From Hoeflea sp. (GTDB lineage: Bacteria > Pseudomonadota > Alphaproteobacteria > Rhizobiales > Rhizobiaceae): 64,000 bases of DNA. The notes under the pieces were generated by a model. That model ran no database searches, was not told where the DNA came from, and saw nothing but the letters and a program-made list of their open reading frames with translations. This document shows, in pieces, positions 41,839-63,446 of this stretch (within the stretch, counting starts at the first letter, position 1; every line of letters starts with the position of its first letter). The position numbers were made by a program, and so were the translations under genes. Location of the stretch: NCBI RefSeq assembly GCF_048261205.1, contig NZ_JBLXGF010000004.1; one strand, written 5' to 3'.

Positions 41839-41873
41839 TGTCGATTTATGTTTGAAACTGAGACTCGCGCATT
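41839..41873 (+). repeat. Left terminal inverted repeat
   Basis: TGTCGATTTATGTTTGAAACTGAGACTCGCGCATT; an internal copy CGCTTTACACTTCA at 41911-41924 matches right-end positions 4-17 exactly. Confidence 0.8.
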
Positions 41874-41990
41874 GAGTGTTTTCAATGGTTTGCGTGGGAT
41901 TGAAGTGCAACGCTTTACACTTCATATGAGGCTCGAGCGCGCATTTATTACACTCTAATTGGGATTGATTGACCGCGCTGCGCAACAGTG

Positions 41991-42205
41991 AGAGCCACAC
42001 CTGCACGGAATTGCTGAACTCCTTCTTCTATCCATTCATGGCGCTTCGCTCGCGTCAGGCGGAAACCCGAAGAACCGGGCCGGTTTGCTCTATTTCCGGC
42101 GGGTTTCGGATTGCCCGCACCCCGGGTGCGGCCTTCGCCAAACCCATTGATCTTGAACCAAACCGGCCCCGCAGAATGGTTCCATCTAACCATGAAACGC
42201 TCTAG
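41991..42205. repeat. Structured palindromic miniature element (MITE/RIME-like)
   Basis: Ends AGAGC...GCTCTAG; internal IRs GGGCCGGTTTG/CAAACCGGCCC, AAACCCG/CGGGTTT, CCGCACC/GGTGCGG. Confidence 0.5.
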
Positions 42206-42321
42206 CTGTGAGCTTTCAACAGAGCCGCGTCTGCCGTTGCCCAACTCAAATTAATCACTCCCGATTCGCACACTTGAATAGAAAGCGTCACTGGTTGAGG
42301 GCGCCCATCGTTTGGGCGCGC

Positions 42322-43098
42322 TCACGAGCCCTTCGGCAGGTGGATCGAATTCGCCACCTCGATCAGATGCGGGGCGATTTCGGCGCGAACCCTGTCGACG
42401 CTCCATTTCAGGCTGGACACCGAACATTGCACCGTCGCCACCGGGCGACCGTCGCCGGACAGGACCGGCGCGGCGATGCCGATCTCGTTCATGATGTTCT
42501 CGCTGTGGGTCAGCCCGTAGCCGCAGGCGACCGCATCCTCGATGGCCTCGGCGATCTTGCGCCTGTCGGTCGTCGTCTTCGACGTCACAACCCGGACCGG
42601 CCAGGTCTCGACCGCCTCCTTGCGCTCCGCCTCGCTCATGCGCGCAATCATGGCGCGGCCGCTCGAGGTGGTGAGCGCCGGCAGCCGGCGCCCGGCGACC
42701 ATGGCGCCAAAGGCGGTCAGTTGCGTCGGGATGCGGATGACATAGACGATTTCGCGTCCCGCCAGCCGCGCGACATTGACCCGCTCGCTGAGCAAGCGGC
42801 CGAGTTCGATGAGTTTCGGCATGGCGAGCTGCACCAGCGGATCAGCCCAAAGATAGGCATTGCCCAGTTCCAGAAACTTGATCGAGGGACTGTAGCGCCG
42901 CGATTCCGGGTCCTTGTTCAGGTAGCCGACCTTGTGAAGCGTGTTGGTCAGGCGCTGAACCGCGCTCTTGTCGAGCCCGGTCAGTTCGGCGATCTCAGTC
43001 AGTCCCAGCACCGTGTGATGTTCGTTGAAGGCATGGAGGACCCGCATCCCCTTCTCCAGCGAACCAACAAACAAGGTGTCCTGTTTTTCTTTTGTCAA
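42322..43098 (-). CDS. IclR family transcriptional regulator
   Basis: SLEKGMRVL HTH, TSSGRAMIA, GIAAPV; TTG start with AGGAGAGG RBS gives 258 aa. Confidence 0.92.
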   Translation of the reverse strand: MTKEKQDTLFVGSLEKGMRVLHAFNEHHTVLGLTEIAELTGLDKSAVQRLTNTLHKVGYLNKDPESRRYSPSIKFLELGNAYLWADPLVQLAMPKLIELGRLLSERVNVARLAGREIVYVIRIPTQLTAFGAMVAGRRLPALTTSSGRAMIARMSEAERKEAVETWPVRVVTSKTTTDRRKIAEAIEDAVACGYGLTHSENIMNEIGIAAPVLSGDGRPVATVQCSVSSLKWSVDRVRAEIAPHLIEVANSIHLPKGS

Positions 43099-43199
43099 AG
43101 ATCCTCTCCTTTCGGCCTGCCCGCAAGGCGCGCAAGGACGTTGCGGGGTTGGGTAGACTACATTCTTGACACATTCCAGACCTCCCAATAGTCTAAACC

Positions 43200-43221
43200 A
43201 TAATACGGTGCTACGTATTAT
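43200..43221. promoter_or_regulatory. Palindromic operator, candidate IclR site
   Basis: ATAATACG-GTGCTA-CGTATTAT in the divergent promoter region. Confidence 0.6.
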
Positions 43222-43274
43222 AATATAATAAATGGGAACCAGAGGGGCCGGTTTCGTGCCGGTTAAGTGAGCAG

Positions 43275-44789
43275 ATGAAAACACGTCTATTGATGAGTTC
43301 CGTCGCGCTGTCTGTCGTGATGACCGCCAGCGCCGCCCTGGCCGACAAGGCCAGCGATACGCTGAACACCACCTTTACCAAGGAACTGGAATCGGTCGAC
43401 AGCTATTTCAATTCAGCCCGTGAGGGCGTCATCCTGCAGCGTTCCGTCTGGGACGGCCTGCTCTATCTCAACCAGGAAACCGGCGAGTACGAAGGCAACC
43501 TTGCGACCTCCTGGAAATGGGTTGACGACACGACGCTGGAACTGACCCTGCGCGAGGGCGTCAAGTTCCACAATGGCGAGGAGTTCGATGCCGACGACGT
43601 GGTCTACACCGTCGAGTTCGTTTCCAACCCGGAGAACGGCGTCGTCGTTCAGCGCAACGTCAACTGGATGAAGGGCGCGGAGAAGATCGACCAGTACACC
43701 GTCCGCATCTTCACCAACGGAGCCTTCCCCGCGGCGCTCGAATATCTGGCCGGCCCGGTTTCGATCTATCCGAACGAGTATTACGCTGAGGCCGGCCCCG
43801 CCGGCATGGCGCTGAAGCCGGTCGGCACCGGTCCCTACCGGGTCGAGAGCGTCGAGCCCGGCAAGCACTTCGTGCTGAAGAAATACGACGGCTATCACGG
43901 CGGCCCGAAGGGCATGGCGTCGATCGGCACGGTCGACATCCGCACCATTCCCGACGTCAACACCCAGCTCGCAGAGCTGTTCAGCGGCGGCCTCGACTTC
44001 GTCTGGGGCGTGCCTTCGGACCAGGCTGAGAAGCTTGCCGCGATGGACCGGCTCAACGTCGTCAACGAGAGCACCATGCGGATCGGCTATCTCGAGCTAG
44101 ACGCGGCCGGCCGCAGCGGTGCCGACAACCCGATGACCAGCAAGCTGGTGCGTCAGGCGCTGGCCCATGCGATCGACCGCCAGGCTATTGTCGACAATCT
44201 GCTCAAGGGCGCCTCGAAGGTGGTGAACTCGGCCTGCTTCCCCAGCCAGTTCGGCTGCGAACAGGACGTCACGGCCTATGATTTCGATCCGGAAAAGGCC
44301 AAGGCGCTGCTCGCCGAAGCCGGCTATCCGGACGGCCTGACGATCGACCTCTATGCCTATCGCGACCGTCCCTATGCCGAGGCGATGCTCTCTTATCTCG
44401 CCAATGTCGGTATCACCGCAAACCTGAAATACCTGCAATATTCGGCTCTGCGCGACCTGCGTCAGAAGGGTGAGACCAGCATGAGCTTCCAGACCTGGGG
44501 CTCCTACTCGATCAACGACGCCTCCGCCATCACCAGCCAGTTCTTCAAGCACGGCGCCGAGGACTTCGCCCGTGACGACGAGATCTTGGCCTGGCTCGAT
44601 ATCGCCGACACCGCGGTGGACACCGAAGTGCGCAAGGAAAACTACTCGAAGGCCCTGAAGAAGATCGCCGAAGAGGCTTACTGGGTGCCGCTGTTCTCCT
44701 ACAATGCGAACTACGTGTTTACCAAGGAGGCCAGCTTCACACCGACCCCGGACGAGGTCGTGCGCTTCTTCGACGTCAGCTGGAACTAG
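43275..44789 (+). CDS. Peptide/nickel-family ABC transporter substrate-binding protein
   Basis: Signal peptide, LREGVKFHNGEEFDADDV, PVGTGPY, VRQALAHAIDR. Confidence 0.93.
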   Translation: MKTRLLMSSVALSVVMTASAALADKASDTLNTTFTKELESVDSYFNSAREGVILQRSVWDGLLYLNQETGEYEGNLATSWKWVDDTTLELTLREGVKFHNGEEFDADDVVYTVEFVSNPENGVVVQRNVNWMKGAEKIDQYTVRIFTNGAFPAALEYLAGPVSIYPNEYYAEAGPAGMALKPVGTGPYRVESVEPGKHFVLKKYDGYHGGPKGMASIGTVDIRTIPDVNTQLAELFSGGLDFVWGVPSDQAEKLAAMDRLNVVNESTMRIGYLELDAAGRSGADNPMTSKLVRQALAHAIDRQAIVDNLLKGASKVVNSACFPSQFGCEQDVTAYDFDPEKAKALLAEAGYPDGLTIDLYAYRDRPYAEAMLSYLANVGITANLKYLQYSALRDLRQKGETSMSFQTWGSYSINDASAITSQFFKHGAEDFARDDEILAWLDIADTAVDTEVRKENYSKALKKIAEEAYWVPLFSYNANYVFTKEASFTPTPDEVVRFFDVSWN

Positions 44790-44800
44790 GCGGCTCGACA

Positions 44801-44839
44801 AGGTCCGCGCCGGGCTTTCCTCCAGCCCGGAGCGGACCT
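44801..44839. other. Stem-loop after the binding-protein gene
   Basis: AGGTCCGC-G-CCGGGCT / AGCCCGG-A-GCGGACCT, 15 paired bases. Confidence 0.7.
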
Positions 44840-44893
44840 CAGCTTCCGCAGATCCACCGGCGCGCCGCCGCCAGCTGACGATTGGAACCCGAG

Positions 44894-45811
44894 ATGCTCA
44901 TCTTTACCCTCAAACGGCTGGGCCTTGCCATTCTGGTGACCTTCACCGTCTCGCTGCTCAGTTTCAGCCTGCTGTTCATGGCCGGTGACCCGGCCTCCGC
45001 CATCGCCGGCGAGAACGCCAGCGCCACCGACATCGAAGCGATCCGCGCGCTCTACGGTTTCGACCGGCCCTTCCTGGTGCAGTATGCCGATTGGCTGACA
45101 AGCGCGCTCACCGGTGATTTCGGCCAGAGCTATTATTTCAAGCTGCCGGTCTCAACGCTGATCGGCGAGCGGCTTTCCACCACCATGCTGCTTGGCGTTT
45201 GCGGCATTTCCTTTGCGCTCGTGACCGCCATCCCGCTCGGGGTCGCCGCCGCAATGCGCCCCAATTCCCTGATCGACCGCACCGCGCTGTTCCTCTCGGT
45301 GATGGGACAGGCAATGCCGAGCTTCTGGTTCGGGCTGGTGCTGATCGTCGTTTTCTCGATCCAGCTCGGCTGGTTGCCTCCATCGGGCTCTGACAGCTGG
45401 AAGCACTTCATCATGCCGACCATCGTGCTCGGCTACTATGCCATGCCGGCGATCATGCGCCTTACCCGCGCGGGCATGCTGGAAGTGCTCAACGCCGACT
45501 ATATCCGCACCGCGCGCGCCAAGGGCGCCAGCGAAATGCGGGTGATGTTCAAGCATGCGCTGCGCAACGCCGTGGTGCCTGTGGTCAGTCTCGCGGCGGT
45601 GCAGATGGGATTCATGCTGGGCGGCTCCATCGTGGTGGAATCCATTTTCGCCCTGCACGGCGCCGGCTACCTCGCCTGGGAGTCGATAGGCCGCAACGAC
45701 CTGCCGACCGTGCAGGCGCTGATCCTGATCTTCTCCTGCTTCTACATCGTCTTCACGTTCCTGTCGGATCTGCTCAATGCCTGGCTAGACCCGCGAATCC
45801 GGGTGGGCTGA
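44894..45811 (+). CDS. Peptide ABC transporter permease (DppB-like)
   Basis: ADYIRTARAKG, HALRNA, GGSIVVESIF. Confidence 0.93.
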   Translation: MLIFTLKRLGLAILVTFTVSLLSFSLLFMAGDPASAIAGENASATDIEAIRALYGFDRPFLVQYADWLTSALTGDFGQSYYFKLPVSTLIGERLSTTMLLGVCGISFALVTAIPLGVAAAMRPNSLIDRTALFLSVMGQAMPSFWFGLVLIVVFSIQLGWLPPSGSDSWKHFIMPTIVLGYYAMPAIMRLTRAGMLEVLNADYIRTARAKGASEMRVMFKHALRNAVVPVVSLAAVQMGFMLGGSIVVESIFALHGAGYLAWESIGRNDLPTVQALILIFSCFYIVFTFLSDLLNAWLDPRIRVG

Positions 45812-45814
45812 GAC

Positions 45815-46714
45815 ATGGCGCGCACAATCGAAACCGTCGCGGAGGAACTCCGCACCCCGAGCCCGGCCAGCCTCCTGCGCAAGCGGGTCTTCGGCCACTA
45901 CGGCCTGGTCTTCGGCATCTGTGTCCTTGTGATCGTCGTGGCGCTGGCGCTCTTCGCGCCGCTGCTGACCCCGCATGATCCTTACGCGCAGGATCTGGTG
46001 GCCCGCATGCGACCGCCCTTCTGGATGACGGGCAGCGACCCCGACCATCTGCTCGGTACCGATTATCTGGGGCGCGACTATCTGGCGCGGCTGTTATACG
46101 GCGCACGCATCTCGCTCGCCATCGGCCTCTTCGCGGCGCTGATCTCCGGCCTCATCGGCACGGCGATGGGCGTTGCGGCGGGCTATTTCGGCGGCCGGGT
46201 CGACCTCGTCGTCACCTTTCTGATCAATGTCCGCCTTGCCATGCCGGTGGTTCTGGTGGCGCTCGCCGTCGTCGCCCTCCTCGGCGGTTCGCTGCAGGTG
46301 GTCGTCTGCGTCCTCGGTCTGCTGCTGTGGGACCGGTTTGCGGTGGTCATGCGCTCCTCGGTGCTGCAGGTGCGCGATCTCGAATATGTCAATGCTGCAA
46401 GGGCCATCGGCTGCTCGACCAGGCGCATCATCCTGCTCGAGATCATGCCCAACGTGGTCAACAACCTGATCGTCGTGGTCACGCTCGAGATGGCCCATGC
46501 CATCCTGCTGGAGGCGGCACTGTCCTTCCTCGGCCTCGGCGTCCAGCCGCCGACCCCCTCTTGGGGTCTGATGATCTCGGAGGGCAAGCAGATGATGCTG
46601 TTCGAGCCCTGGCTGATCGCCATTCCGGGCGTCGCGCTGTTTATCCTCGTGCTGGCCATCAATCTTCTTGGCGATGGTCTGCGCGACGTCACCGCGCCGG
46701 AAAACAGGGGATGA
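45815..46714 (+). CDS. Peptide ABC transporter permease (DppC-like)
   Basis: HLLGTDYLGRD, EYVNAARAIG, EAALSFLGLG. Confidence 0.93.
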   Translation: MARTIETVAEELRTPSPASLLRKRVFGHYGLVFGICVLVIVVALALFAPLLTPHDPYAQDLVARMRPPFWMTGSDPDHLLGTDYLGRDYLARLLYGARISLAIGLFAALISGLIGTAMGVAAGYFGGRVDLVVTFLINVRLAMPVVLVALAVVALLGGSLQVVVCVLGLLLWDRFAVVMRSSVLQVRDLEYVNAARAIGCSTRRIILLEIMPNVVNNLIVVVTLEMAHAILLEAALSFLGLGVQPPTPSWGLMISEGKQMMLFEPWLIAIPGVALFILVLAINLLGDGLRDVTAPENRG

Positions 46715-47709
46715 GTACGACCATGAACGAAACCGTCCTCACAGTAAAAAATCTCACCATCGACATCCCCATGGCGCGAGGCACCCTGCATGCAGTGCGC
46801 GGCATCGACTTCGAACTGAAGCGCGGCGAGACGCTCTGTATCGTCGGCGAAAGCGGCAGCGGCAAGTCGCTGACCTCGCTCGCTATCATGGGCCTGTTGT
46901 CGAAGAAGATGCGCTGCAACGCCACCAGCCTCGACTTCTCCGGCCTTGACCTGCGCAAACAATCGCCGCGCGCCATGCGGGCACTGCGCGGCGACCGCAT
47001 GGCGATGATCTTCCAGGAGCCGATGACCTCGCTGAACCCGGCCTACACCATCGGCGACCAGTTGATGGAGGCGTTGCAACTGCACCGTCCGGTCAGCCGG
47101 CAAGAGGCGCGCGCCCGCGCCGCCGAACTGCTCGGCAAGGTCGGCATTACCGCGGCCGAAAGCCGGCTCGGCCAGTATCCGCACCAGCTCTCCGGCGGCC
47201 TTCGCCAGCGCGTCATGATCGCCATGGCGCTGATGTGCGAGCCGGAGCTGATCATCGCCGACGAGCCGACCACCGCGCTGGACGTGACCATCCAGGCACA
47301 GATCCTGCGCCTGCTCGCCGACCTGCAGCGCGAGATGAACATGGCGATGATGCTCGTCACCCACGATCTCGGCGTCGTCGCCCGCATCGCCGACAAGGTT
47401 GTCGTCATGTATGCCGGCGAAGTGGTCGAGAGCGGCAGCGCGCGCGAGATCTTTGAAAACCCGCGCCATCCCTACACGCGCGGTCTGCTGCGCTGCATCC
47501 CGATTCCCGGCAGGACGAAGCCGGGTGAGCATCTCGGCTCCATCCCCGGCATCGTCCCCTCGCTGATCGGCGCCGTCGAGGGCTGCGCCTTCCGCTCGCG
47601 TTGCGACGTGGCCAAGGACGCCTGCGCAGCGGCAATACCGGTATGCCACAGCGGCAGCGACCACATCTATCGCTGCATCCATGATGCCCAGGCAGGAGTT
47701 TCGACATGA
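46711..47709 (+). CDS. Peptide ABC transporter ATP-binding protein (DppD-like)
   Basis: GESGSGKS, FQEPMTSLNP, LSGGLRQR, ADEPTTALD; ATG overlaps the upstream stop. Confidence 0.94.
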   Translation: MSTTMNETVLTVKNLTIDIPMARGTLHAVRGIDFELKRGETLCIVGESGSGKSLTSLAIMGLLSKKMRCNATSLDFSGLDLRKQSPRAMRALRGDRMAMIFQEPMTSLNPAYTIGDQLMEALQLHRPVSRQEARARAAELLGKVGITAAESRLGQYPHQLSGGLRQRVMIAMALMCEPELIIADEPTTALDVTIQAQILRLLADLQREMNMAMMLVTHDLGVVARIADKVVVMYAGEVVESGSAREIFENPRHPYTRGLLRCIPIPGRTKPGEHLGSIPGIVPSLIGAVEGCAFRSRCDVAKDACAAAIPVCHSGSDHIYRCIHDAQAGVST

Positions 47710-48683
47710 GCGTGACCATCACTCCTCCCGTCCTGGAACTCGCCTCCGTCGCCAAGACCTACCAGGTCCGGCAGGGCATGTTCTCCGCACCAAAGCCGCT
47801 GCATGCGCTCGGCGGCGTCAGCCTGCGCATTCACAAGAAGGACGTGCTCGGCCTAGTCGGTGAGAGCGGCTGCGGCAAGTCGACCCTCGCCAAGATCCTG
47901 CTCGGCCTCGAGGCGCCCACGTCTGGCCAGGTGCTGGTCGACGGGCGCGAGATCACCGCGCGCGACCGCACGGTGCTTGCCCGCCGCATCCAGCCGATCT
48001 TCCAGGATCCGTACTCCTCGCTTAATCCGCGAAAGAGCATCGAGGACATCATCGCCCTGCCGCTTGTCGTTCACAGGATCGGCGACGGCGCGTCGCGGGC
48101 CAAGGCGGTCTCCCGCATGCTCGATCTCGTCGGCCTGCCGCAGCGAGTGCTGAAAGGCTATCCCAACCAGCTCTCCGGCGGCCAGCGCCAGCGCGTGGCG
48201 ATTGCCCGGGCGCTGGTGATGAACCCGGAGATTGTCATCTGCGACGAGCCGACCTCGGCGCTCGATGTCTCCGTTCAGTCGCAGATCCTCAACCTGCTCG
48301 GCGATCTGCGCGAGGAACTGGGGCTCACCTATCTCTTCATCAGCCACAACCTCGCCGTGGTCGAACATCTGGCGACGCGGGTGGCGGTAATGTATCTGGG
48401 GCGGATCGTCGAGGAGGCGCCGTCAGCTGAACTCTTCGCCGGGCCGCGCCACCCCTATACGCGCGCCCTGCTTGAATCCGTGCTGACGCCGGATCCTGAC
48501 CTGTCAGTCCCCGACACCCAGCTCGGCGCCGCCTATCCCAACCCGATCGACCCGCCGTCCGGCTGCCATTTCCATCCCCGTTGCGCCATGGCGATTGATA
48601 CCTGCAAGACCACGCCTCCGCCCCATGTCACGCGATCGACCGGTCATGTCGACTGCCACCTGCATTCCGTACCCACGTCTTGA
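47706..48683 (+). CDS. Peptide ABC transporter ATP-binding protein (DppF-like)
   Basis: [36 protein letters not shown]. Confidence 0.94.
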   Translation: MSVTITPPVLELASVAKTYQVRQGMFSAPKPLHALGGVSLRIHKKDVLGLVGESGCGKSTLAKILLGLEAPTSGQVLVDGREITARDRTVLARRIQPIFQDPYSSLNPRKSIEDIIALPLVVHRIGDGASRAKAVSRMLDLVGLPQRVLKGYPNQLSGGQRQRVAIARALVMNPEIVICDEPTSALDVSVQSQILNLLGDLREELGLTYLFISHNLAVVEHLATRVAVMYLGRIVEEAPSAELFAGPRHPYTRALLESVLTPDPDLSVPDTQLGAAYPNPIDPPSGCHFHPRCAMAIDTCKTTPPPHVTRSTGHVDCHLHSVPTS

Positions 48684-48693
48684 AGACTAGGCC

Positions 48694-50268
48694 ATGAGCA
48701 ATTTTTCCCGCACCCAAACCGTGCGCAAGCACGTCATCGAGACAAAGGGCGGCATCGTCGCCTCGCAGCACCGGGTGGCCGCAGAAACCGGTGCTGCCGT
48801 GCTTTCCGCCGGCGGCGACGCGGTGGATGCAGCGGTCGCCGTTTCCTTCGCGATCGGTGTCGTCGAACCCTGGATGAGCGGACCTGCCGGAGGCGGCGCC
48901 ATGGTCGTGTGGCGCGAGAACAAGCAACGCGCCCATACCGTCCAGTTCGGCATGCGCTCGCCGGCCGGGCTCGATCCGGCCAACTATCCGCTCACGGGCG
49001 GCAAGACCGCGGGCGACCTGTTCCCATGGCCATCAGTTGCCGGAGACCGCAACATCCAGGGCGCCACAGCCATTGCCGTACCGGGCACCGTCGCCGGTAT
49101 GGAACTGGCGCACGCAACGTGGGGCCGGGCAGACTGGAAGGATCTCGTCCTGCCGGCAGCCGACCTTGCGGCGAAGGGGATGCAGGTCGACTGGTACGCC
49201 TCGCTGATCATCGCTTCGGTCGCCCGCGATCTGGCGGCGGATGCGGACGCGGCGGCGATGTTCCTCGACGACGGCACCTGGCCAAAATCAGCCGGCTGGA
49301 CAGCGATTTCCAACATCCGCCTCGACCAGGCCCGGATGGCCGACACCTTGCGGCGCATCGCCGATGCCGGCGCCCGCGACTTCTACGAGGGCGACATCGC
49401 AGCTGCCCTTGCCGCCGACGTCCAGGCCAAGGGCGGTTCGCTCTCGCGTGCCGATCTCGCCGCCTATCGGGCCAGGTTGACGCCGGCCCTCGACGTCTCC
49501 TATCGCGGTGGCACCGTTCATGCAGCGGCTGGGCTGACTGCCGGTGCCAATCTCGCCGAATGCCTGCAGATGATGGAATCGGCCTTTGTCCCCGGCGCTG
49601 CTCCCGATGGCACAAGCTATGCCGAGATGGCGCGGGCGCTCTCCGCCAGCTACGAACGGCGGCTGCGCGAGATGGGCGACACCGAGGCTGTGAACGCGCC
49701 CTCCTGCACCACCCATTTCAGCATCGTCGACCGGCATGGCAATATGTGCGCCGTCACCCAGACCCTGCTGTCGGTGTTTGGCTCGCGGGTGGTCTCGCCC
49801 TCCACCGGCCTTCTGATGAACAACGGCATCATGTGGTTCGATCCCGAGCCCGGCAAGCCGAATTCGCTTGCGCCGAACAAGGCCTGCCTGATGAACGTCT
49901 GTCCGGCGATCGGCGCCAAGGACGGCCGTCGCTTCGCCATCGGCGCTTCGGGCGGACGCAAGATCCTGCCGGCGGTGCTCAACCTCACATCTTTTCTGAT
50001 GGATTTCGACATGTCGCTGGAGCAGGCCTTCCACCATCCGCGCATCGACAACAGCGGCGGCGGCGCCATCATCACCGACGAGACGCTGCCGCCGGAAATC
50101 ATTGCTGCACTCGCGGCCGTCCATCCTGTCACGACCACGCGACGAACTGTCTTCCCCTATGCCTTCGCCTGCCCGGCGGGCGTGCTGCGGCGGGACGGAG
50201 TGAATATGGGCTGCACGGAAATCATGTCGCCATGGGGCGACGCCGTGCCCGAAACCGAAGGAGCCTGA
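48694..50268 (+). CDS. Gamma-glutamyltransferase-family Ntn hydrolase (atypical active site)
   Basis: [17 protein letters not shown], autoprocessing site [14 protein letters not shown]. Confidence 0.9.
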
Positions 50269-50269
50269 C

Positions 50270-51679: not shown

Positions 51680-51683
51680 TGAT

Positions 51684-52379: not shown

Positions 52380-52440
52380 CGATATATCTCTTCCAAGTCA
52401 TGAGAGGAGGCAGGGCGGCATTCACCGCCCTGCCTTCGGA

Positions 52441-53661: not shown

Positions 53662-53684
53662 TGTGATTCCTCCTCAAATTGCGT

Positions 53685-54473
53685 TCAGCCGGCGAGAAAG
53701 TCGCCGATCTTGGTGAGCGTTTCTGGCTTTTCCTGCAGTACGAAATGGCCGGCGTCCTCGACCAGGATCAGCCGCGCATCGGGCAGCGCCTCAATCCAGA
53801 GCGGAGCCTGGCTGGCTGGCAGCAGACGGTCCTGCGTGCCCCAGACGACAAGAGTCGGGTTGGTATTCCGCGCCAGGAAATGGCGCAGGTTGGGATGGCC
53901 CATGCCGAAGGGCGTAAGCAGACGGCCGAGCGTCTCGCCTTCCCGGGCGCGATCGGCACCGAAGGCCTCTGCGAAGGCGGCGTCCGATCCGTCAGGGAAA
54001 TAGCGCAATGCGACAGCGACATCATGCGCCAGATATCCGGGCAGATCCTGAGGCGCGACCTCGCCCAGATTGGTAGCTGGATGAGCCGGATCGTTCAGGC
54101 CGGCGGGCGCAATCAGCACGATCTTATCAAACCGCTCGCGCGCGACGGCCGCCAGTTCGGTGGCCATCCACCCGCCCATGGAAAAGCCGATGAGATGCGG
54201 CTTCTGATCGAGATCCAGCGCGTCAAGCAGGTTCAAATAGTGCAGCACCATGTCGGACATGCCTGCCACGTGCGGCGCGTCGCCCGAGAAACCGAAGCCG
54301 GGGTGGCTGGCGCAGAGGACGCGGAAGCGGTCGGCCAGGCCTTCTGCGAAATCAAAGCCTTCAAGCGTCGAAGCGCCGTGCAGAAACAGCACTGGCTTGC
54401 CTTGTCCGATGGCTTTGACCACCGTTTTCGTCCCGTCGATATCGTATTCAAGCGTTTCGAACTGAACGGCCAT
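53685..54473 (-). CDS. Alpha/beta hydrolase
   Basis: VLFLHG, GFSMGG nucleophile elbow, WGTQDRL, DAGHF; AGGAGG RBS before MAVQF. Confidence 0.9.
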   Translation of the reverse strand: MAVQFETLEYDIDGTKTVVKAIGQGKPVLFLHGASTLEGFDFAEGLADRFRVLCASHPGFGFSGDAPHVAGMSDMVLHYLNLLDALDLDQKPHLIGFSMGGWMATELAAVARERFDKIVLIAPAGLNDPAHPATNLGEVAPQDLPGYLAHDVAVALRYFPDGSDAAFAEAFGADRAREGETLGRLLTPFGMGHPNLRHFLARNTNPTLVVWGTQDRLLPASQAPLWIEALPDARLILVEDAGHFVLQEKPETLTKIGDFLAG

Positions 54474-54486
54474 TTCTGTTTCCTCC

Positions 54487-55503: not shown

Positions 55504-55516
55504 GGAAACCTCCTTC

Positions 55517-56542
55517 TCAGCGGTTTGGGTCGAGGAGCTTGCGCCTGATCGGGAACCAGGGCGCGTCCCATCGCTTCGAAGCCAGCCCCCAGATGCCGCT
55601 TCGAGCGTAAAGCGCCACGAGCAGTGTCATCAGGCCGAGAACGACGAAATAGGTTGCGCCATACTCACCGAACCAACGGTCCGCAATGAAGTAGATCAGC
55701 GACCCGATCAGGACGCCTTCGATTGACCCGATGCCGCCGATCATGACGATGAAGATCACGATATTCGTCCACATCGGATCGAAGGCCGAGCCCGGGGTTA
55801 TCCTGAGCTGGGCCATGAAGTAGATCGCGCCGGCAAGGCCGCAGCCGACCGCCGATGCGACATAAACGAGGAAGCGCAGCTTGGCGACGTTGACGCCCTG
55901 ACTGGCCGCCGCGATGGGATTGTCGCGCATGGCGATCAGCGCGAGGCCAAAGCGCGAGCGCAGCAGCCAGTAGCTGCCGCCCAGCGTGACAATGAGCATC
56001 ATCGTGCAGAGCAGCGACATGGCGACATTGCGCTCAAACAGCGAATAGTCCTTCATCACGCGGAGCGACATACCGGCACCGGAATTGACCAGCGGCAGGT
56101 TCGATGCAATCAGCCGGAAGACCTCTGCCAACACCCATGTTCCAATCGCGAAATACGGACCGTCCAGACGGTGAAGCAGCAAGTACATCGGCACGGCCAG
56201 CACTGCCGGCACCAGCAGAGAAAGGAAGACCGCCATGAAGGGATTGATGCCGTAGGTCTGGGCCAGAACGAACAACGCATAGCCCGACGCGCCCATGAAG
56301 GCATGCTGGCCGACGGAGACCAGGCCGGCATAGCCGGCGAGCAGATTCCACATCTGAGCGACTGCGATATAGCAGCACAGAATGAGAACCGACCGGATCG
56401 TTCCAGTCGAGGCCCACCACGGCATGGCGGCCAATGCCAGCAACGCCAGCACTGCCAGCGTCATCGCGATGCGGCCCGACCGCGTCTGGCGCTGGACGGT
56501 GACCTCGGGCAATGCGATTTCGGCATAGGGGACTGCGCTCAT
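55517..56542 (-). CDS. Branched-chain-type ABC permease (LivM-like)
   Basis: WNLLAGYAGLVSVGQ, GPYFAIGT, IAMRDNP. Confidence 0.92.
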   Translation of the reverse strand: MSAVPYAEIALPEVTVQRQTRSGRIAMTLAVLALLALAAMPWWASTGTIRSVLILCCYIAVAQMWNLLAGYAGLVSVGQHAFMGASGYALFVLAQTYGINPFMAVFLSLLVPAVLAVPMYLLLHRLDGPYFAIGTWVLAEVFRLIASNLPLVNSGAGMSLRVMKDYSLFERNVAMSLLCTMMLIVTLGGSYWLLRSRFGLALIAMRDNPIAAASQGVNVAKLRFLVYVASAVGCGLAGAIYFMAQLRITPGSAFDPMWTNIVIFIVMIGGIGSIEGVLIGSLIYFIADRWFGEYGATYFVVLGLMTLLVALYARSGIWGLASKRWDAPWFPIRRKLLDPNR

Positions 56543-57402
56543 GATAACGCCTTTCCGAACAGGCCCTGCGGGCGGGTCGCCAGCACGATCAGGAAAACAA
56601 GATGTCCGGCGAGAACGCCGAAACCAGGGTCGATGCGGAAGCCGATCGCCTGCGAAATTCCGAGCACCATCGAGCCGATGAAGGCGCCCCAGACGGAGCC
56701 CATGCCGCCGATGATCACGGCCTCGAAGGCATAGATCAGCTGGGCAGGTCCGTCAGCCGGTGCAACGGTCGAGCGCAGCGCCTGGAAGACCGCTGCAAAG
56801 CCGAGGATACCGACCGCAACCGCTGTTGCCATTGCATAGACGGCGCGGGTGTTGATGCCGGTCATCGCCGCCGCCTCGACATCGGCCGACGCGGCACGAA
56901 GCGCCCGGCCGAAGCGGGTGCGCTTCAACACCAGATCGAGGCCTCCGGTCAATCCCGTGGCAACCGCGAGCACGATCAGCGGGAGCAAGCCGATATAAAT
57001 GCCACCGATCTCGATGGATTGGCTCTCGATTCCCTGGCCGGGCAGCGAACGGCTGTTGGCAGACCAGATCTGCAGCATCAGGTTCTGCAGCGCGATCGAC
57101 AGCCCGAATGTCGCGATCAGCGAGGGCAACGGATCATCGCCCACCACCTTGTTCAGCACGGCCTTTTGCAGGACCCATCCCATCATCACCGCGAGTGGCA
57201 CCAATATGATGAGCACAGGAAGCGGTCCGAGACCCCAGGCCATCGCGATCGAAATGCCGATCAGCGACAGCAGAATCACCAGATCGCCATGGCTGATGTT
57301 CACGATCCGCATCACCCCGAACATCAACGCCATACCGAGTGCATATTGGGCATACATACCGCCCAGCAGTACCCCCTGAACCAATGCGTCAAACCACACC
57401 AT
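56539..57402 (-). CDS. Branched-chain-type ABC permease (LivH-like)
   Basis: FGVMRIVNISHG, TRFGRALRA, IIGGMGS; start set at MVWFD. Confidence 0.92.
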   Translation of the reverse strand: MVWFDALVQGVLLGGMYAQYALGMALMFGVMRIVNISHGDLVILLSLIGISIAMAWGLGPLPVLIILVPLAVMMGWVLQKAVLNKVVGDDPLPSLIATFGLSIALQNLMLQIWSANSRSLPGQGIESQSIEIGGIYIGLLPLIVLAVATGLTGGLDLVLKRTRFGRALRAASADVEAAAMTGINTRAVYAMATAVAVGILGFAAVFQALRSTVAPADGPAQLIYAFEAVIIGGMGSVWGAFIGSMVLGISQAIGFRIDPGFGVLAGHLVFLIVLATRPQGLFGKALS

Positions 57403-58117
57403 GGCTGGCTCCAAAATAAGCTTCACCGATTTGCTCGCGGGTGACGTCAGCGGATCTGCCTGTCAGCGTCACTCGCCCCTCAAGCATGCAGTAGAGACGG
57501 TCGGTTGCCGACTGCGCCAGGCCCACATCTTGTTCGACCAGGATCACCGCCGTCCCGGTTGCCCGGATCTCGGGCAAGGCAGCGTAGATCTCGCGGATTA
57601 CCTTGGGCGCCAGGCCGAGACTGATCTCGTCGCACAGCAGTACACGCGGCTGGCAGAGCAAGGCACGGCCGATGGACACCATCTGCTGTTGTCCGCCCGA
57701 GAGGCTCTGCACTTCCGTGCGGGCCTTTTCCTTGAGGATCGGGAACAGCTGGTACAACCGCTCGAGCGTCCACCCGCCTTTGGTGCCCATGCGCGCGGCC
57801 TGATCGATGGCGACGCGCAAATTGTCCTCGACCGACATGCCGGTGAAGAGACGGCGGCCCTCGGGCACGATCGCAACCCCCTTCTGCACCATGCGGTCCG
57901 TGGCCGCGCCCCCGATGGGCTCGCCGTCGAGCCAGACCATCTCGCGCGCCACCGGCAAGAGGCCCATGATGGCGCGCAGAAAGGTGGATTTCCCTGCCCC
58001 GTTCGCACCGATCAGGGCGACGGCCTCGCCCTGATGCAGCTCGGTGTCGACACCGTAGAGCGCCTGAAAATCCCCATAGCGGGCGATGAGCCCCCGGGTG
58101 GAAAGAATGGCCGTCAT
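57389..58117 (-). CDS. ABC ATP-binding protein (LivF-like)
   Basis: GANGAGKST, VPEGRRLF, LSGGQQQM, DEISLGLAP. Confidence 0.93.
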   Translation of the reverse strand: MTAILSTRGLIARYGDFQALYGVDTELHQGEAVALIGANGAGKSTFLRAIMGLLPVAREMVWLDGEPIGGAATDRMVQKGVAIVPEGRRLFTGMSVEDNLRVAIDQAARMGTKGGWTLERLYQLFPILKEKARTEVQSLSGGQQQMVSIGRALLCQPRVLLCDEISLGLAPKVIREIYAALPEIRATGTAVILVEQDVGLAQSATDRLYCMLEGRVTLTGRSADVTREQIGEAYFGASHGVV

Positions 58118-58842
58118 GCCTCGATCCCCATGTAAACCCGCTGCACCTCGGGCAGCGCAATGACTTCGGCCGGCACGCCATCGGCGATCATTTCGCCGAA
58201 ATTCAGCACGATCAGCCGATCGGCGACCGCAAGCAGCGCGTGCAGCACATGCTCGATCCAGACAACGGTGACACCACGGTCACGGATGCGCCGCACCAGC
58301 GCCACCAGCGCCTTCGATTCATCGTCGGTCAGCCCACCCGCGATTTCGTCCAGAAGCAGCAGCTTCGGATCCGAGGCCAGCGCGCGCGCCAGTTCCAGCC
58401 GTTTGCGGTCGAGCAATGTCAGAGCGCCTGCAGAAACATTGGCCTTGTCGGAGAGCTCGCAATCGCGCAGCACCTGGGCGCAAAAGGCATAGCTCTGCTT
58501 CTCGGACCGGCCGCCGCCGAAAGCGGCGGCGACCAGCAGGTTCTCGAAAGTGGTCATGCCGGAATAGGGACGCGGGATCTGATAGGTCCGCCCGATTCCC
58601 ATCTGGCAGCGCCTGAACGGCGGCTCACGACGCAACAACGTGTCGCCGAGCTGGATCTCACCGCCCGAGGCACTCAGATCGCCGCTGATCATATTGAACA
58701 GCGTCGTCTTGCCCGCGCCGTTCGGGCCGAGAATGCCGAGCACCTCGCCCCGGTTTACGTCGAAACTCACGTCGTGCAGGACGCGAACGGCGCCGAAGGA
58801 CTTCGACACACCGCGCGCTTTCAGCAGGATTTCTCTGTCCAT
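58114..58842 (-). CDS. ABC ATP-binding protein (LivG-like)
   Basis: GPNGAGKTT, LLLDEIAGGL, IEH; start set at MDREI. Confidence 0.93.
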   Translation of the reverse strand: MDREILLKARGVSKSFGAVRVLHDVSFDVNRGEVLGILGPNGAGKTTLFNMISGDLSASGGEIQLGDTLLRREPPFRRCQMGIGRTYQIPRPYSGMTTFENLLVAAAFGGGRSEKQSYAFCAQVLRDCELSDKANVSAGALTLLDRKRLELARALASDPKLLLLDEIAGGLTDDESKALVALVRRIRDRGVTVVWIEHVLHALLAVADRLIVLNFGEMIADGVPAEVIALPEVQRVYMGIEA

Positions 58843-58867
58843 CACTTTGTCCGCGTCCTGTCTCGTA

Positions 58868-60178
58868 TCACCAGGTGATCGGCACAATGGCCTGTTCAGG
58901 CGCGAAGAGCTGATTGACCGTGTTGTCAACGATCTTCAGATCATAGGGCCACTTCTCGCCCTTCACCCACTGGCCGCCAAAGATCGGCGTCTTGCAGACA
59001 TTCTTGTGGGTCGAACCGTCGAACTTGATATTGCCGACCAGCGTCTGCAGATCTGTGGCGGCCATCGCGTCGCGGTTTGCCGTGCGGTCGAGCGGATCGG
59101 ACGAGCGCTTCAGGATATCCAGGGCAACCTCTAGCAGCGCATGCGAATAACCCAGCGGCTGTGTCCACTGGCGGTTGGTATCGGTTTCCCACTGATTGGC
59201 AATGTCGCTGCTGACCTCGCCGGTCAGCGACGACTTGAACGGGAAAGCCGGTGTCCACCAGACCTCCGAGGACATGCCATTGCCAAGCGGCCCCATGGCT
59301 TCCACGCCACCGGGGAACAGCAACGCCGCCGCGACCGTCACTGCCTTTGGCTTGAAGCCCTGCTGGTTGCACTGGGTGATGAAGGTCTTGAGATCGTCCG
59401 GATAGGTGATGCCGCCGATGATCTCGCAGTTCTGGTTCTTGAACTCGGCGATCTGCGCCGAGAAGTCATTGGTGCGCGGCTGGAAATAGCCGGGTACCAC
59501 CACCTCGTAGCCCGCAGCGCGGGTCGGCACCGGCAGGCCGTAATCGTCGTTGCCCCAGGTCTCGCCGTCGATGTTCTGGGGGAACAGCATGCCGACCTTC
59601 TTGTTGCTATCGAGGCCCTTCCACAGACCGACAAAGGTGTTGAGCGCCTCATCGAGGCCCCAGAAGAAGTGATAGGTCCAGTCGAAAGACGCCTCGGCTC
59701 CGCCGCGCGGCATGACCACCGCTTGCCAGGGCGCACCCGACGAGATGCAGGGGGTCTCGTAGAGCTCCGCCTGCTCGGCGGCGGGCAGAATGGTGTCGGT
59801 GGTCGACGCCGGAACCAGCAGATGGACTTCGTCATTGAGGATGAGATCGCCCGCGATTTCCGCTGATTTGTTCGGATTTGACTGGCTGTCGCGATCGAGG
59901 ATCTCGATTTCGTAGGTCTTGCCATTGTCACATTGCAGTTGACCGCCGAGCAGAGTGCGGATCTTCTCCAAAGTGTAGCCGTCGGTTTCACCGAACAGGG
60001 CAAGCGGGCCGGTGGTGGGGCTGATATAGCCGATCTTGATCTTGCCCGCAGTGGCTGCGCGCGCGTAGCCGGGCAAGGCAAGCGTGCTGACCGCAGCGCT
60101 GGCTCCAAGCCCCTTGAGCACGGTCCGGCGACTGGGGTTCAGGCCCGCTTTCACCAGCTTGTTGTTGATGTTGGTCAT
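58868..60178 (-). CDS. Tat-exported ABC substrate-binding protein (Leu/Ile/Val-binding fold)
   Basis: Twin-arginine SRRTVLK, KIGYISPTTGPLA, DSQSNPN. Confidence 0.9.
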   Translation of the reverse strand: MTNINNKLVKAGLNPSRRTVLKGLGASAAVSTLALPGYARAATAGKIKIGYISPTTGPLALFGETDGYTLEKIRTLLGGQLQCDNGKTYEIEILDRDSQSNPNKSAEIAGDLILNDEVHLLVPASTTDTILPAAEQAELYETPCISSGAPWQAVVMPRGGAEASFDWTYHFFWGLDEALNTFVGLWKGLDSNKKVGMLFPQNIDGETWGNDDYGLPVPTRAAGYEVVVPGYFQPRTNDFSAQIAEFKNQNCEIIGGITYPDDLKTFITQCNQQGFKPKAVTVAAALLFPGGVEAMGPLGNGMSSEVWWTPAFPFKSSLTGEVSSDIANQWETDTNRQWTQPLGYSHALLEVALDILKRSSDPLDRTANRDAMAATDLQTLVGNIKFDGSTHKNVCKTPIFGGQWVKGEKWPYDLKIVDNTVNQLFAPEQAIVPITW

Positions 60179-60252
60179 TGTCGTTTCCTCCCGTTGATAA
60201 GCTGTATCCGGCCCTGCCTCCTCTACAGAGCCGGCCTCACTTCGAAACGTCT

Positions 60253-61071
60253 TCAGGTCATCCGCAGCAGTGCACCTCCATCGATGACGATCTGCGCGCC
60301 CGTCACGTAGGACGAGGCAGGCGAGGCCAGATAAAGTGCCAGGCCTTTGATTTCTTCCGGATCGCCGATCCGGCCGATCAGCGACTGGTCCTCGAAGGCC
60401 TTGCGGTCCGCCGGATTGCGCAACCGGCCGCCGGCGATGTTGGTGATGAACGGACCAGGCAGGATGGCGTTGATGCGGATGTTGTATGCCCCGAGCTCCA
60501 TCGCCATGTGGCGAACCAGATGGTTCACCGCGGCCTTTGCGGGCATGTAAGGCGTGCCAACGATGCTCTCGTTGATCAGCGAGGCGATAGACGATGTGAC
60601 GATGATCTGGCCGCCGCCATTGGGCTTCATGTGCCGGACAGCGTGTTTGATCGTGGTGTAGACCGAGGTCAGGTTGATTTCGATCACCTTGTCCCAGTGT
60701 TCGTCGGACAGGTTCTCAATGGCGCCCTCGGGATTACGCTCGCCCGTCGGGGTGTTGAAGCCAGGCCCGGCGTCGATCCCAGCATTGGCGAACACCACAT
60801 CGATCGCGCCCGCCTTTTCGGCCACCTTGTCAAAGGCCTCCGCCATGGCTGCGCGGTCGCCCACGTCGACAAGCAAGCCCCAGACATCGCCGCCCGCGGC
60901 GCTGATCTCGGCGACGGTTTTCTCCAGCCCTGCAGGATTCAGATCGAAAATGCAGACCCTGGCTCCGTGCTCGGCCATGATCTCGGCATAGGCCTGACCA
61001 ATTCCGCTGGCGCCGCCGGTGACGATCACCGACTTGCCTCGGACATCGAACATTTTTTCAAGCGCGGCCAT
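60253..61071 (-). CDS. Short-chain dehydrogenase/reductase
   Basis: TGGASGIG, FANAG, TSS, YMPAK, INAILPG. Confidence 0.93.
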   Translation of the reverse strand: MAALEKMFDVRGKSVIVTGGASGIGQAYAEIMAEHGARVCIFDLNPAGLEKTVAEISAAGGDVWGLLVDVGDRAAMAEAFDKVAEKAGAIDVVFANAGIDAGPGFNTPTGERNPEGAIENLSDEHWDKVIEINLTSVYTTIKHAVRHMKPNGGGQIIVTSSIASLINESIVGTPYMPAKAAVNHLVRHMAMELGAYNIRINAILPGPFITNIAGGRLRNPADRKAFEDQSLIGRIGDPEEIKGLALYLASPASSYVTGAQIVIDGGALLRMT

Positions 61072-61202
61072 CAGTTTCCTCCTGCTTCCCTAACACCAAC
61101 CTGTGCACAAGCGCCCCCGGAAGCCCTGCAGCGCAGGGTCACTTCGTCTTTCACGACACCGCAATCCCGGCCTTCGTGGCGGCAGCCGCTGCTACGAGCC
61201 AT
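61071..61202 (-). CDS. Small 43-aa ORF or gene relic between the dioxygenase and the SDR
   Basis: AAGGAGA RBS 6 nt before ATG; stop overlaps the SDR start (TGATG); MARSSGCRHEGRDCGVVKDEVTLRCRASGGACAQVGVREAGGN. Confidence 0.3.
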   Translation of the reverse strand: MARSSGCRHEGRDCGVVKDEVTLRCRASGGACAQVGVREAGGN

Positions 61203-62103
61203 CGGTTGTCTCCTTGCCGGACATTCCGGTTTCATTCGGCTGTTGCGGGCAGAGAACAAGGTCGAGCTCGAGCGCATGCTGCCGTTTCTTGCCATTGAGC
61301 GGAAGCGCGCGGAACTCAGCCAGGAGTTCGGGCTTGACGCCGAAAATGGCATCCCGGCCGATCGCAGGGTCCAATTGGTCAAAAATGTGGGTCGTCAGCG
61401 TCTCGAAGCCCTCGGCTGAAACGCGAAAATGAATATGGGCCGGCCGCTCCAGGCCAAGGCCGAGCGTCGACATCAGCTGACCGACCGGCCCGTCGGAAGG
61501 AAGCGCGTAGCCCTTCGGCTTGACTGTCAAGAAATGGAACCGTCCCTGCGGATCGGCACGGAACCGTCCGCGCAGATTGAATTCCGGCTGACGATCCGGT
61601 TCCTGGTTCTCGTAAAGACCCTCGGCATTGGCATGCCAGACCTCAACAATCGCCCCACCGATCCCTGCGCCGTCGAGCGCGACGATCCGGCCCGAAACTT
61701 CCAGCGGCTCACCCTTGGCATCGCGCGAGATGTTTGCGCCGAGTGGCATTTCCGGCGCGTCGGCGCGGTAGAAAGGTCCGGCGACCGTGTTTGGCGTGGC
61801 TCCAACGGGGCGCGGGCTGTTCTGATCCTCGATCAGCGAGGACACGCCGAGAACATCGACGAACAAGACCCATTCCTGCCGCCGCGCATCCGCGTAATGG
61901 CCAACCTCGGTCAGGAAGTCGATCACCAGCCTGAATTCCTCTCCCGTGGGTTGAAGCTCGGCAACCAGCGTGTGCAGTCCATCGACGATCGTTCGCGCGG
62001 CCGCCGTCAGGCGGGACTGATCAGCTGCCGCAAGACGCCTCGAGAACTCCTTGGCTTGGGCGGAGATGTGCTGGGTGAGTTCATCCCTTTGCTTATCCTC
62101 CAT
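61192..62103 (-). CDS. Intradiol ring-cleavage dioxygenase (hydroxyquinol/catechol 1,2-dioxygenase-like)
   Basis: GPFY, VWHANAEGLY (Tyr ligand), KGYALPSDGPVG (Tyr ligand), RPAHIHF (two His ligands); start set at MEDKQ. Confidence 0.9.
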   Translation of the reverse strand: MEDKQRDELTQHISAQAKEFSRRLAAADQSRLTAAARTIVDGLHTLVAELQPTGEEFRLVIDFLTEVGHYADARRQEWVLFVDVLGVSSLIEDQNSPRPVGATPNTVAGPFYRADAPEMPLGANISRDAKGEPLEVSGRIVALDGAGIGGAIVEVWHANAEGLYENQEPDRQPEFNLRGRFRADPQGRFHFLTVKPKGYALPSDGPVGQLMSTLGLGLERPAHIHFRVSAEGFETLTTHIFDQLDPAIGRDAIFGVKPELLAEFRALPLNGKKRQHALELDLVLCPQQPNETGMSGKETTDGS

Positions 62104-62183
62104 CGCTCCAGGGCCTCCACTCCCCTTGCCAATTGGGATAGCACGGCCCGATGCGATTCTTGATGAGTTGTGGGATCGCCTGT

Positions 62184-62198
62184 ATAGCAAATTGCTAT
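62184..62198. promoter_or_regulatory. LysR T-N11-A palindrome
   Basis: ATAGCAA-A-TTGCTAT, overlapping the LysR start codon. Confidence 0.75.
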
Positions 62199-63147
62199 GA
62201 AGCTGAACGAGCACCACTTGATGCAACTCGCCGCGGTGCTGGACGCCGGGGGTGTCACGGAAGGAGCCGCCATGCTGGGCATGACCCAGCCTGCGGTCAG
62301 CCGTTCGCTTTCCAAGCTGGAGGCGCGGGTCGGAGAACCGCTCTTCCTCAAGGGCCGCCGTCCGCTACAGGCGACACCGCTCGGCGAACAACTGGCAGCG
62401 CAAGGACGCATGATCATCATCGCGTCGCGCAGGGCCTCCGATGCCGTACAGGGCTTTGTGACCGGCACGAAGGGTGTCATCCGCGTCGGCGGCGTGCCCT
62501 TTTTCATGGATGCGATGATCAGCCGGATGATCGCGGAGTTCCAGAACTTCGAACCAGAGGTCACTGTGCAGCAAAGTTACCTCAACCAGCCCGAAATGAT
62601 CGCTGCGCTGCAGGGCAACCAGATCGATCTCGGCATCGTGCCGATCGGCACGCCCGATATCGGAGCGGGCTTTGAATTCACCGAAATCCTGCCCGGCCGC
62701 AATATCGTGGCTTGCCGGCCTGACCACCCTCTGCTGCGCAATCCCCGCCTCAAGGCACAAGACCTGGCCAGTTTTCCCTGGGTGGCCCCCCTGCCAGGTT
62801 CGCCGCTGATGTCGGACCTGCAAATGATCCTGATGAGCATCGGCATGTCGGACTTGAATGTCCGTTATTCAGGGGGCTCACTGATGAGCGTGATCAACTA
62901 TATTGCCGGGACCGACGCAATGGCGGTGCTGCCATTCTCCGTGGTTTTCGCGCAGCGCTACGAAAACCGGGTGACCGTGCTTCCTTATGAAATCCCGCAA
63001 CCCAACCGTTCACTCGGCATCCTGCGCCGGGTTGGAGGGCCGCGCACGCCTGCGGCAGAGCGCTTCGCCAGCCACATCACGACCTCGTTCGACAATCTGA
63101 AGCACATCATCAAGCGGCATGAGAACGCCGTCGTCTGGGGCCGCTAA
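62197..63147 (+). CDS. LysR family transcriptional regulator
   Basis: GGVTEGAAMLGMTQPAVSRSLSKLE HTH; divergent from the dioxygenase operon. Confidence 0.95.
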   Translation: MKLNEHHLMQLAAVLDAGGVTEGAAMLGMTQPAVSRSLSKLEARVGEPLFLKGRRPLQATPLGEQLAAQGRMIIIASRRASDAVQGFVTGTKGVIRVGGVPFFMDAMISRMIAEFQNFEPEVTVQQSYLNQPEMIAALQGNQIDLGIVPIGTPDIGAGFEFTEILPGRNIVACRPDHPLLRNPRLKAQDLASFPWVAPLPGSPLMSDLQMILMSIGMSDLNVRYSGGSLMSVINYIAGTDAMAVLPFSVVFAQRYENRVTVLPYEIPQPNRSLGILRRVGGPRTPAAERFASHITTSFDNLKHIIKRHENAVVWGR

Positions 63148-63151
63148 AGCA

Positions 63152-63402
63152 TGGGCCGCCTGTCCGGAGTTCCAGGAATTGGTCCCCGCAATTCTGCGCA
63201 GTCTACCGCTTAAACCTCCATCCGCCTTATCGAGCCAAGACTGAGACGCCTTGCCCGCCTCGGCGACGGCATAACCGCGCGCATATTCGGGATACTGAAC
63301 GAACTCGCAAGTGAAGCCATTCAGGACGGCACAGAGCGCATTACCGATGAAGACATTGATTCCTGGAAGCCAGCCTTGGAAAAGGAGGCGGCTTTCGCAT
63401 AG
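63152..63402 (+). pseudogene. tniB: Frameshifted C-terminal remnant of a TniB/TnsC-like NTP-binding transposition protein
   Basis: WAACPEFQELVPAILRSLPLKPPSAL, frameshift near 63240, then LRRLARLGDGITARIFGILNELASEAIQDGTERITDEDIDSWKP...*; recognised by eye as TniB-like. Confidence 0.7.
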
Positions 63403-63411
63403 CCAACAAAA

Positions 63412-63446
63412 ACTGCCCGAGTCCCAGTTTGAAGTGTAAAGCGACA
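63412..63446 (-). repeat. Right terminal inverted repeat
   Basis: Minus strand TGTCGCTTTACACTTCAAACTGGGACTCGGGCAGT. Confidence 0.8.

Follow-up and report, generated by a model that had tools for sequence, protein, structure and literature searches.

A 21.6-kb catabolic island in a marine Hoeflea species is very probably a non-autonomous derivative of a two-gene TniA/TniB transposon

The stretch of Hoeflea sp. DNA analyzed here (64,000 nucleotides of contig NZ_JBLXGF010000004.1, hereafter the window) contains at positions 41839-63446 a block of 21,608 bp, bounded by TGT/ACA termini, which is very probably one non-autonomous derivative of a two-gene transposon of the TniA/TniB ("TnsBC") type. 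An original prediction, made from the letters of the window only, had described this block as a Tn7/Tn5053-like transposon defined by its ends, which, having lost its transposase, had brought in some 21 kb of genes for uptake and degradation. The description as a non-autonomous carrier of foreign genes is supported by a natural empty site, by ends homologous to those of intact transposons and by the foreign character of the cargo, while the family assignment needs to be narrowed, as discussed below. Neither the element nor any other part of the window encodes a transposase with the rve and Mu-transposase C-terminal domains; in autonomous relatives such a gene lies beside the homologous ends, and the window element is therefore a non-autonomous derivative. 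We also agree with the prediction that annotation at the level of open reading frames (ORFs) does not reveal the element.

Filled and empty versions of the site differ exactly at the TGT/ACA termini, and the block therefore arrived by transposition. By means of the neighboring LacI gene we located 22 loci of the Hoeflea group, and the site is reached in 20 of these (the other two end or diverge short of it). In all 20 informative loci the arsR-family gene of the left flank adjoins the molybdopterin oxidoreductase gene of the right flank. The insertion target is an ordinary chromosomal intergenic region between these two genes, and in the closest locus (94% identity) the flanks meet within one or two bases of 41838/63447. 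Contigs from the marine metagenome runs X5, X10 and X29, about 98% identical to the flanks, contain the empty site with a single GATGA (core sequence GCGGG-GATGA-TTTTGG), which can be read from both sides in X5 and X29 as ...GCTGCGGG-GATGA-TTTTGGCCCTG... and from the left flank only in X10. The filled site occurs with both junctions, at about 97% identity, in runs X1, X3, X7 and X9, where the left pentamer is always GATGC and the right one GATGA, as in the window, and run X2 has the same right-end relic, including a 64-bp deletion that is described below. No intermediate state of the site was seen in the window, the five carrier runs, the three empty runs or the 20 genomes. The element is a presence/absence polymorphism within one species that is base-exact at the transposon termini, and the empty site to which the prediction had looked as a check has its breakpoint at 41838/63447 in Hoeflea genomes and metagenome contigs alike. 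A near-identity search of both junctions among the plasmids of PLSDB returned nothing, or the conserved oxidoreductase gene only.

The left end starts at 41839 with TGTCG (TGTCGATTTATGTTTGAAACTGAGACTCGCGCATT) and the right end finishes at 63446 with CGACA (its reverse complement is TGTCGCTTTACACTTCAAACTGGGACTCGGGCAGT). The two match at 27 of 35 positions, and at 23 of 29 when only the terminal 29-mers are compared, which together with the GATGC and GATGA flanks is just what had been predicted. A degenerate version of the end pattern, with up to three mismatches allowed, is found in the window at these two ends and nowhere else, where 0 would be expected by chance (100 shuffles). Termini of the form 5'-TGT...ACA-3' are those of TnsB/TniA-type transposons, and here they are also the repeat boundaries of an intact 2,767-bp element. 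The flanking pentamers, neither of which has a strand, are GATGC at 41834-41838 in all carriers and GATGA at 63447-63451; a single GATGA when the site is empty and GATGC...GATGA when it is filled correspond to a 5-bp target-site duplication with one mismatch. The left GATGC is an A-to-C change in the duplicated GATGA, common to all carriers, though a 4-bp duplication with one extra base at the target could also have given these flanks.

The left-end remnant of the tniA-tniB element covers 137 bp (41839-41975, plus strand) and is about 85% identical to the left ends of three copies of the intact element (L001, L006 and L009). It contains a terminal TGT site (41839-41867), an inverted inner site (about 41896-41912) that is the counterpart of a conserved inverted site in relatives, and two direct inner sites (41915-41932 and 41948-41965) that fit the inner-site consensus of intact relatives, with the exact 14-mer CGCTTTACACTTCA at 41911-41924. 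The terminal site and the three inner sites are homologous to those of four relatives, and the inner sites listed in the original prediction (the 14-mer at 41911, an inverted partial site and a weaker one at about 41948) are all real according to both the consensus and the relatives. The homology covers every conserved site of this end and breaks off about 25 bp short of the expected start of tniA; the same architecture is kept in the Martelella, Aminobacter and Methylocystis copies.

Between this remnant and the cargo lies a noncoding junction without strand (41976-42321), which found only itself when searched against the window and all fetched loci. Part of it (about 42053-42207) is multi-copy in Hoeflea sequencing runs, with depth up to about 8-fold and many contig breaks, and includes a 22-nt imperfect hairpin at 42101-42145. 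Copies of about 90% identity are also present in runs X5 and X10 of the element-free strains, and neither an Rfam match nor a further copy in the window was found for this stretch. It may be a host repeat resembling a repetitive extragenic palindrome or a miniature inverted-repeat transposable element (MITE) that came in after arrival of the island.

The right end shows homology to the intact element over 282 bp (63165-63446), most of which is a frameshifted tniB pseudogene (63165-63402, plus strand) comprising the last 79 or so codons of the gene at about 83% nucleotide identity to tniB of L001. This fragment is all that the element retains of its TniB/TnsC AAA+ gene, which is whole in relatives. 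The relic that the prediction had placed 44 bp inside the right end is indeed there: its stop codon (63400-63402) lies at that distance, and its final 46 codons are 91% identical in amino acid sequence to TniB of the intact element. The end proper (63403-63446, minus strand) has the terminal TniA site alone (63418-63446). A segment of 64 bp is missing at 63411|63412, and with it the two inner sites of this end (R2 and R3, of which one is direct and the other inverted), which are kept in all four copies compared (Hoeflea, Martelella, Aminobacter and Methylocystis). A short right end as a natural variant is rejected in view of these four relatives, and it is because of the deletion, and not of the normal architecture, that the original prediction listed no further right-end sites. 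The loss is secondary, and the element stays in the TnsB/TniA-type family. Apart from the two ends and the relic, no second tniA, tniB or end sequence is present in the window, cargo included.

When one genome per species was scanned for the end pattern, 11 loci were obtained. Two of them, in Hoeflea sp. CAU 1731 and Nitratireductor alexandrii, take up entire contigs with a length of exactly 2,767 bp. These contigs start with TGTCG and finish with CGACA, and they look like a multi-copy repeat collapsed in assembly. The element codes for a TniA of 539 amino acids (with rve, Mu-transposase C-terminal and Mu helix-turn-helix domains) followed by a TniB of 295 amino acids (PF05621) and for nothing else, with tnsA, tniQ and resolvase all lacking. 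TniA matches the solved TnsB structures of Tn6677 (E 6e-44) and ShCAST (E 9e-33), and TniB matches VchTnsC (E 8e-13). The ends thus do flank an intact tniA-tniB pair elsewhere, a test on which the original prediction had staked its reading. The proteins are 100% identical among copies in Hoeflea sp. CAU 1731, N. alexandrii and Antarcticimicrobium luteum, which represent two orders (L001, L004, L006 and L009), and a plasmid of Hoeflea sp. Naph1 carries a copy that is 98-100% identical. Distinct right-end flanks number at least 4 in N. alexandrii and 3 in Hoeflea sp. CAU 1731. Given such varied flanks and identical copies across genera, the intact element is active and has recently moved between genera.

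Several observations on relatives of this element can be added. One right-end flank, GTCAGGCACAGG, occurs in both Hoeflea sp. CAU 1731 and N. alexandrii (contigs L003 and L008), which suggests a shared plasmid or island. Related gene pairs occur on 195 plasmids, mostly alphaproteobacterial, where they are annotated generically as "Mu transposase C-terminal domain-containing protein" and "TniB family NTP-binding protein". Plasmid pMET1 of Aminobacter sp. NyZ550 (L127, 6001-7299) has a 1.3-kb internally deleted related copy with both ends and tniB and without tniA, which shows that non-autonomous derivatives arise repeatedly among relatives of the element. More distant relatives that bear tniQ sit on Roseobacter-group plasmids, and one with the gene order tniA-tniB-tniQ is found on the Pseudosulfitobacter plasmid pDSM107133_g (L130); the two-gene form may have arisen by loss of tniQ within a TniABQ lineage. 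In run X1, a low-depth contig of 422 bp (L001 1-95 plus 2618-2662) has a right end and a left end separated by only 54 bp, and represents, in this seawater metagenome, a miniature, MITE-like derivative from the same family of elements. Contigs of X9 and X7 that match window positions 41837-41899 with other flanks are further L001-type left ends located elsewhere. Run X9 also has pieces matching L001 2355-2767, with a left-end depth like that of the Hoeflea strain and without the element interior, and may hold a second truncated copy.

Where the parent-type element belongs can be judged from its gene content, which would place it with the "TnsBC elements", described as having TnsB and TnsC without TnsA or TniQ and as transposing replicatively in the manner of Mu (bioRxiv 10.1101/2024.11.13.623437). 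The parent resembles these elements in having tniA followed by tniB, TGT/ACA termini, repeated subterminal sites and proteins that match TnsB and TnsC of solved CRISPR-associated transposon structures, and a Mu-like replicative mechanism would be expected for it. It differs in that the described elements are mainly streptomycete (Streptomyces) and cyanobacterial, many of them telomeric or one-ended, whereas the parent here is two-ended, 2.77 kb long, similar to an insertion sequence (IS) and found in marine and soil Alphaproteobacteria, and the window copy is a gene-less, cargo-loaded derivative.

The label Tn7/Tn5053-like is accurate with regard to the TnsB/TniA type of DDE transposase and the 5-bp duplication, but neither family applies in the strict sense, as the parent is a 2.77-kb two-gene tniA-tniB element. 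With Tn5053/Tn402 and Tn7 it has in common the DDE transposase (rve plus Mu-transposase C-terminal domain), the TniB/TnsC ATPase, the TGT/ACA ends with several transposase sites per end and, in the window copy, the 5-bp duplication; it lacks TnsA, a TniQ/TnsD/TnsE selector, a resolvase with res and an attTn7-type site. Tn7 sensu stricto is therefore rejected, there being no TnsA, TnsD/TniQ or TnsE gene in either the parent-type or the window element, and so is the Tn5053/Tn402 family, since the parent-type element has no tniQ, tniR or res and the target is not a res site. Like Mu A/B and IS21 IstA/IstB, the parent encodes a transposase and an ATPase helper as its sole proteins, and its TniA shares the helix-turn-helix and C-terminal domains of the Mu type, but it is not a phage, and TniB belongs to PF05621 and not to the IstB/DnaC type of ATPase. 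IS21 was considered since an ATPase gene ends beside the terminus, and was rejected on account of the TniB helper and a score of 20 bits against a cutoff of 160 for the NCBIfam IS21 transposase model. A composite transposon was likewise rejected, as only the 137-bp left and 282-bp right fragments are present and no other end or tni sequence lies inside.

A known system with close parallels in layout is that of class 1 integrons such as In0, In2 and In5, defective members of the Tn402/Tn5053 family in which two TniA-type ends enclose the cargo, deletion or truncation of the tni genes has left part of tniB at one end, the flanks show a 5-bp duplication and movement needs tni functions in trans (PMC3575428). 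The differences are that Tn402 as a parent carries tniA-tniB-tniQ-tniR and seeks out res sites whereas the parent here has tniA-tniB only, that the cargo here consists of catabolic and transport operons without an integron, and that the remnant here is entirely without tniA and has one damaged end. By this analogy, the window element is a defective TnsB-family transposon with cargo that follows the same logic as the Tn402-derived integrons, and it is mechanistically unsurprising.

The cargo, annotated with Pfam and NCBIfam, is a mosaic of at least two foreign modules that were brought together between the ends, more likely before arrival than after it. Module 1 (42322-51679) comprises an IclR regulator on the minus strand (42322-43284), a Dpp/Gsi-type peptide importer of the ATP-binding cassette (ABC) class (43275-48683), a gamma-glutamyltransferase (48694-50268) and an M20 peptidase (50270-51679). 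It corresponds to one contiguous block with 82-86% nucleotide identity to Stappia spp., which is found too in Nitratireductor, Chelativorans and Mesorhizobium alhagi. Module 2 (51831-63147) starts with a flavin reductase and a monooxygenase of the acyl-CoA-dehydrogenase fold (together a two-component flavin monooxygenase), an alpha/beta hydrolase and a Zn-dehydrogenase, continues with a Liv-type ABC importer (55517-60178) and a second dehydrogenase of the short-chain dehydrogenase/reductase family, and closes with an intradiol dioxygenase of the catechol/hydroxyquinol type (61192-62226, minus strand) and a LysR regulator (62197-63147, plus strand). This module is syntenic with Paracoccus and other Rhodobacterales at 75-79% nucleotide identity, its LysR and dioxygenase genes are 80-83% identical to those of Kaistia and Mesorhizobium, and the 80 best-matching loci include none from Hoeflea. 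The LysR regulator gave no match when its exact protein sequence was looked up.

Homology to other genomes stops at the IclR stop codon on one side and at the LysR stop codon on the other, and the genomes of relatives never have the two modules adjacent or tni genes beside them. The GC content is 0.630 inside the element vs. 0.597 outside, and at third codon positions (GC3) it is 0.79 vs. 0.72 (p = 3e-5), so the GC3 comparison that the original prediction had suggested gives a higher value inside than in the host flank. The likely benefit of this cargo, as far as it can be read from the genes, would be uptake and hydrolysis of gamma-glutamyl compounds or peptides together with aromatic catabolism via intradiol ring cleavage.

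The probable course of events would begin in a donor, where the element interior (tniA and most of tniB) would have been lost and about 21 kb from at least two sources would have come to lie between the left end and the 3' remnant of tniB. A TniA/TniB pair acting in trans would then have recognized the repeated end sites, and the 3' ends would have been joined to a staggered 5-bp target between the arsR-family and molybdopterin oxidoreductase genes, with a simple insertion as the outcome, either directly or after a cointegrate had been resolved by homologous recombination. Afterwards the element was passed on vertically within one lineage of the species, with decay, and it now acts as a fixed genomic island.

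The same ends and duplication could in principle have been left by an assembly in place, where an intact 2.8-kb tniA-tniB element, or a two-copy composite around the cargo, inserted first and the cargo was gained or the transposase genes deleted at the locus, such that the 21.6-kb unit itself never transposed. The two internal junctions (41975/41976 and about 63165) are required under any history, internally deleted related copies such as the one on pMET1 do exist, and the metagenome scan did not find a second site with the 21.6-kb element. We nevertheless consider this history very unlikely, since the site is known only as full (the window and five runs) or cleanly empty (three runs and 20 genomes), the cargo interior is without any other end sequence or tni fragment, and two unrelated foreign modules would each have needed to hit the same 2.8-kb target. 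Arrival of an island by some other route, through an integrase or an integrative and conjugative element or through homologous recombination of the flanks, with only incidental similarity between the ends, would fit the foreign and island-like nature of the block and nothing more. The block has no integrase, tRNA, att-type repeat or conjugation genes (scanning the entire window with Rfam and for tRNAs gave no matches), its breakpoints fall to the base on TGT/ACA termini that are homologous over 137 and 282 bp to transposon ends, and the duplication at its flanks is of a target that occurs only once in empty sites. This route is effectively refuted by the empty-site comparison, and we give it next to no credence.

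Some points do weigh against arrival of the block as a single transposing unit. The duplication is imperfect (GATGC/GATGA), and matching 5-bp flanks were found in 0 of 6 related copies (L006, L009, L126, L127, L128 and L129), which means that a 5-bp duplication has no independent confirmation in this subfamily; among the copies examined, the window element alone has one. Most economically, this would be explained by replicative transposition without a resolvase, whose cointegrates and rearrangements on plasmids rich in ISs would leave the duplications split between copies. The ends in the window reach no more than about 83-90% identity with the autonomous copies found. A metagenome scan for the 21.6-kb element or its left-end-cargo junction at a second site, kept degenerate at variable positions, gave 0 matches, and movement as a unit therefore rests on one insertion event.

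The element as it now stands looks like a fossil and is decaying. The 64-bp right-end deletion is common to carriers X1, X2, X3 and X9, run X1 has an additional 68-bp deletion in the left end (41864-41931), and runs X3 and X9 have extra indels in the tniB relic. In X1 and X2, where the carrier is present at 800-1300x, there is no full-length tniA-tniB element of at least 80% identity at comparable depth. A still-functional transposon, mobilizable by a cognate TniA/TniB pair in trans as the original prediction had allowed, would be consistent with the retention of both terminal sites and all left-end inner sites, with the activity of related autonomous copies that cross genera and are found on Hoeflea plasmids among others, and with the demonstration that class 1 integrons without tni genes can be moved in trans (PMC3575428). 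Set against this, both right-end inner sites are gone though kept in 4 of 4 relatives, the ends have diverged from the known autonomous copies to the extent given above, and the 68-bp deletion in one carrier strain suggests that there is no selection on the ends. Considering the lost inner sites, the strain-specific deletions and frameshifts and the lack of a cognate element in X1 and X2, mobilization in trans is unlikely today.

These results demonstrate that end sequences of about 140 and about 280 bp are enough to place an island without a recognizable mobility gene in a specific transposon family, and that such an assignment can be checked against natural empty sites, which here make the case unusually clean. 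They also document the delivery of over 20 kb of cargo to a chromosome by a minimal TnsB/TnsC-type element that lacks TniQ and TnsA, and they explain why strains of one marine Hoeflea species differ in catabolic potential, while leaving knowledge of how such transposons work unchanged. It is a speculative and rather improbable extension that two-gene tniA-tniB elements on alphaproteobacterial plasmids routinely spawn large gene-less cargo derivatives that are moved in trans. If this were so, such elements would provide a general route, at present not annotated, for the entry of catabolic and transport islands into the chromosomes of marine bacteria, and the Hoeflea island would be the first case on record for which an empty site is known at the population level.

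Two other features of the window lie outside the element. A Tad/Flp pilus cluster at 9409-15902 (CpaD, secretin, CpaB/RcpC, prepilin peptidase and TadE-like proteins) lies in the lowest-GC part of the window (0.53-0.58) and reads as ordinary chromosomal content. At 21499-22059, in a region of locally low GC, an ORF of 186 amino acids encodes a retropepsin-like aspartyl protease domain (gag-asp_proteas, E 2e-24).

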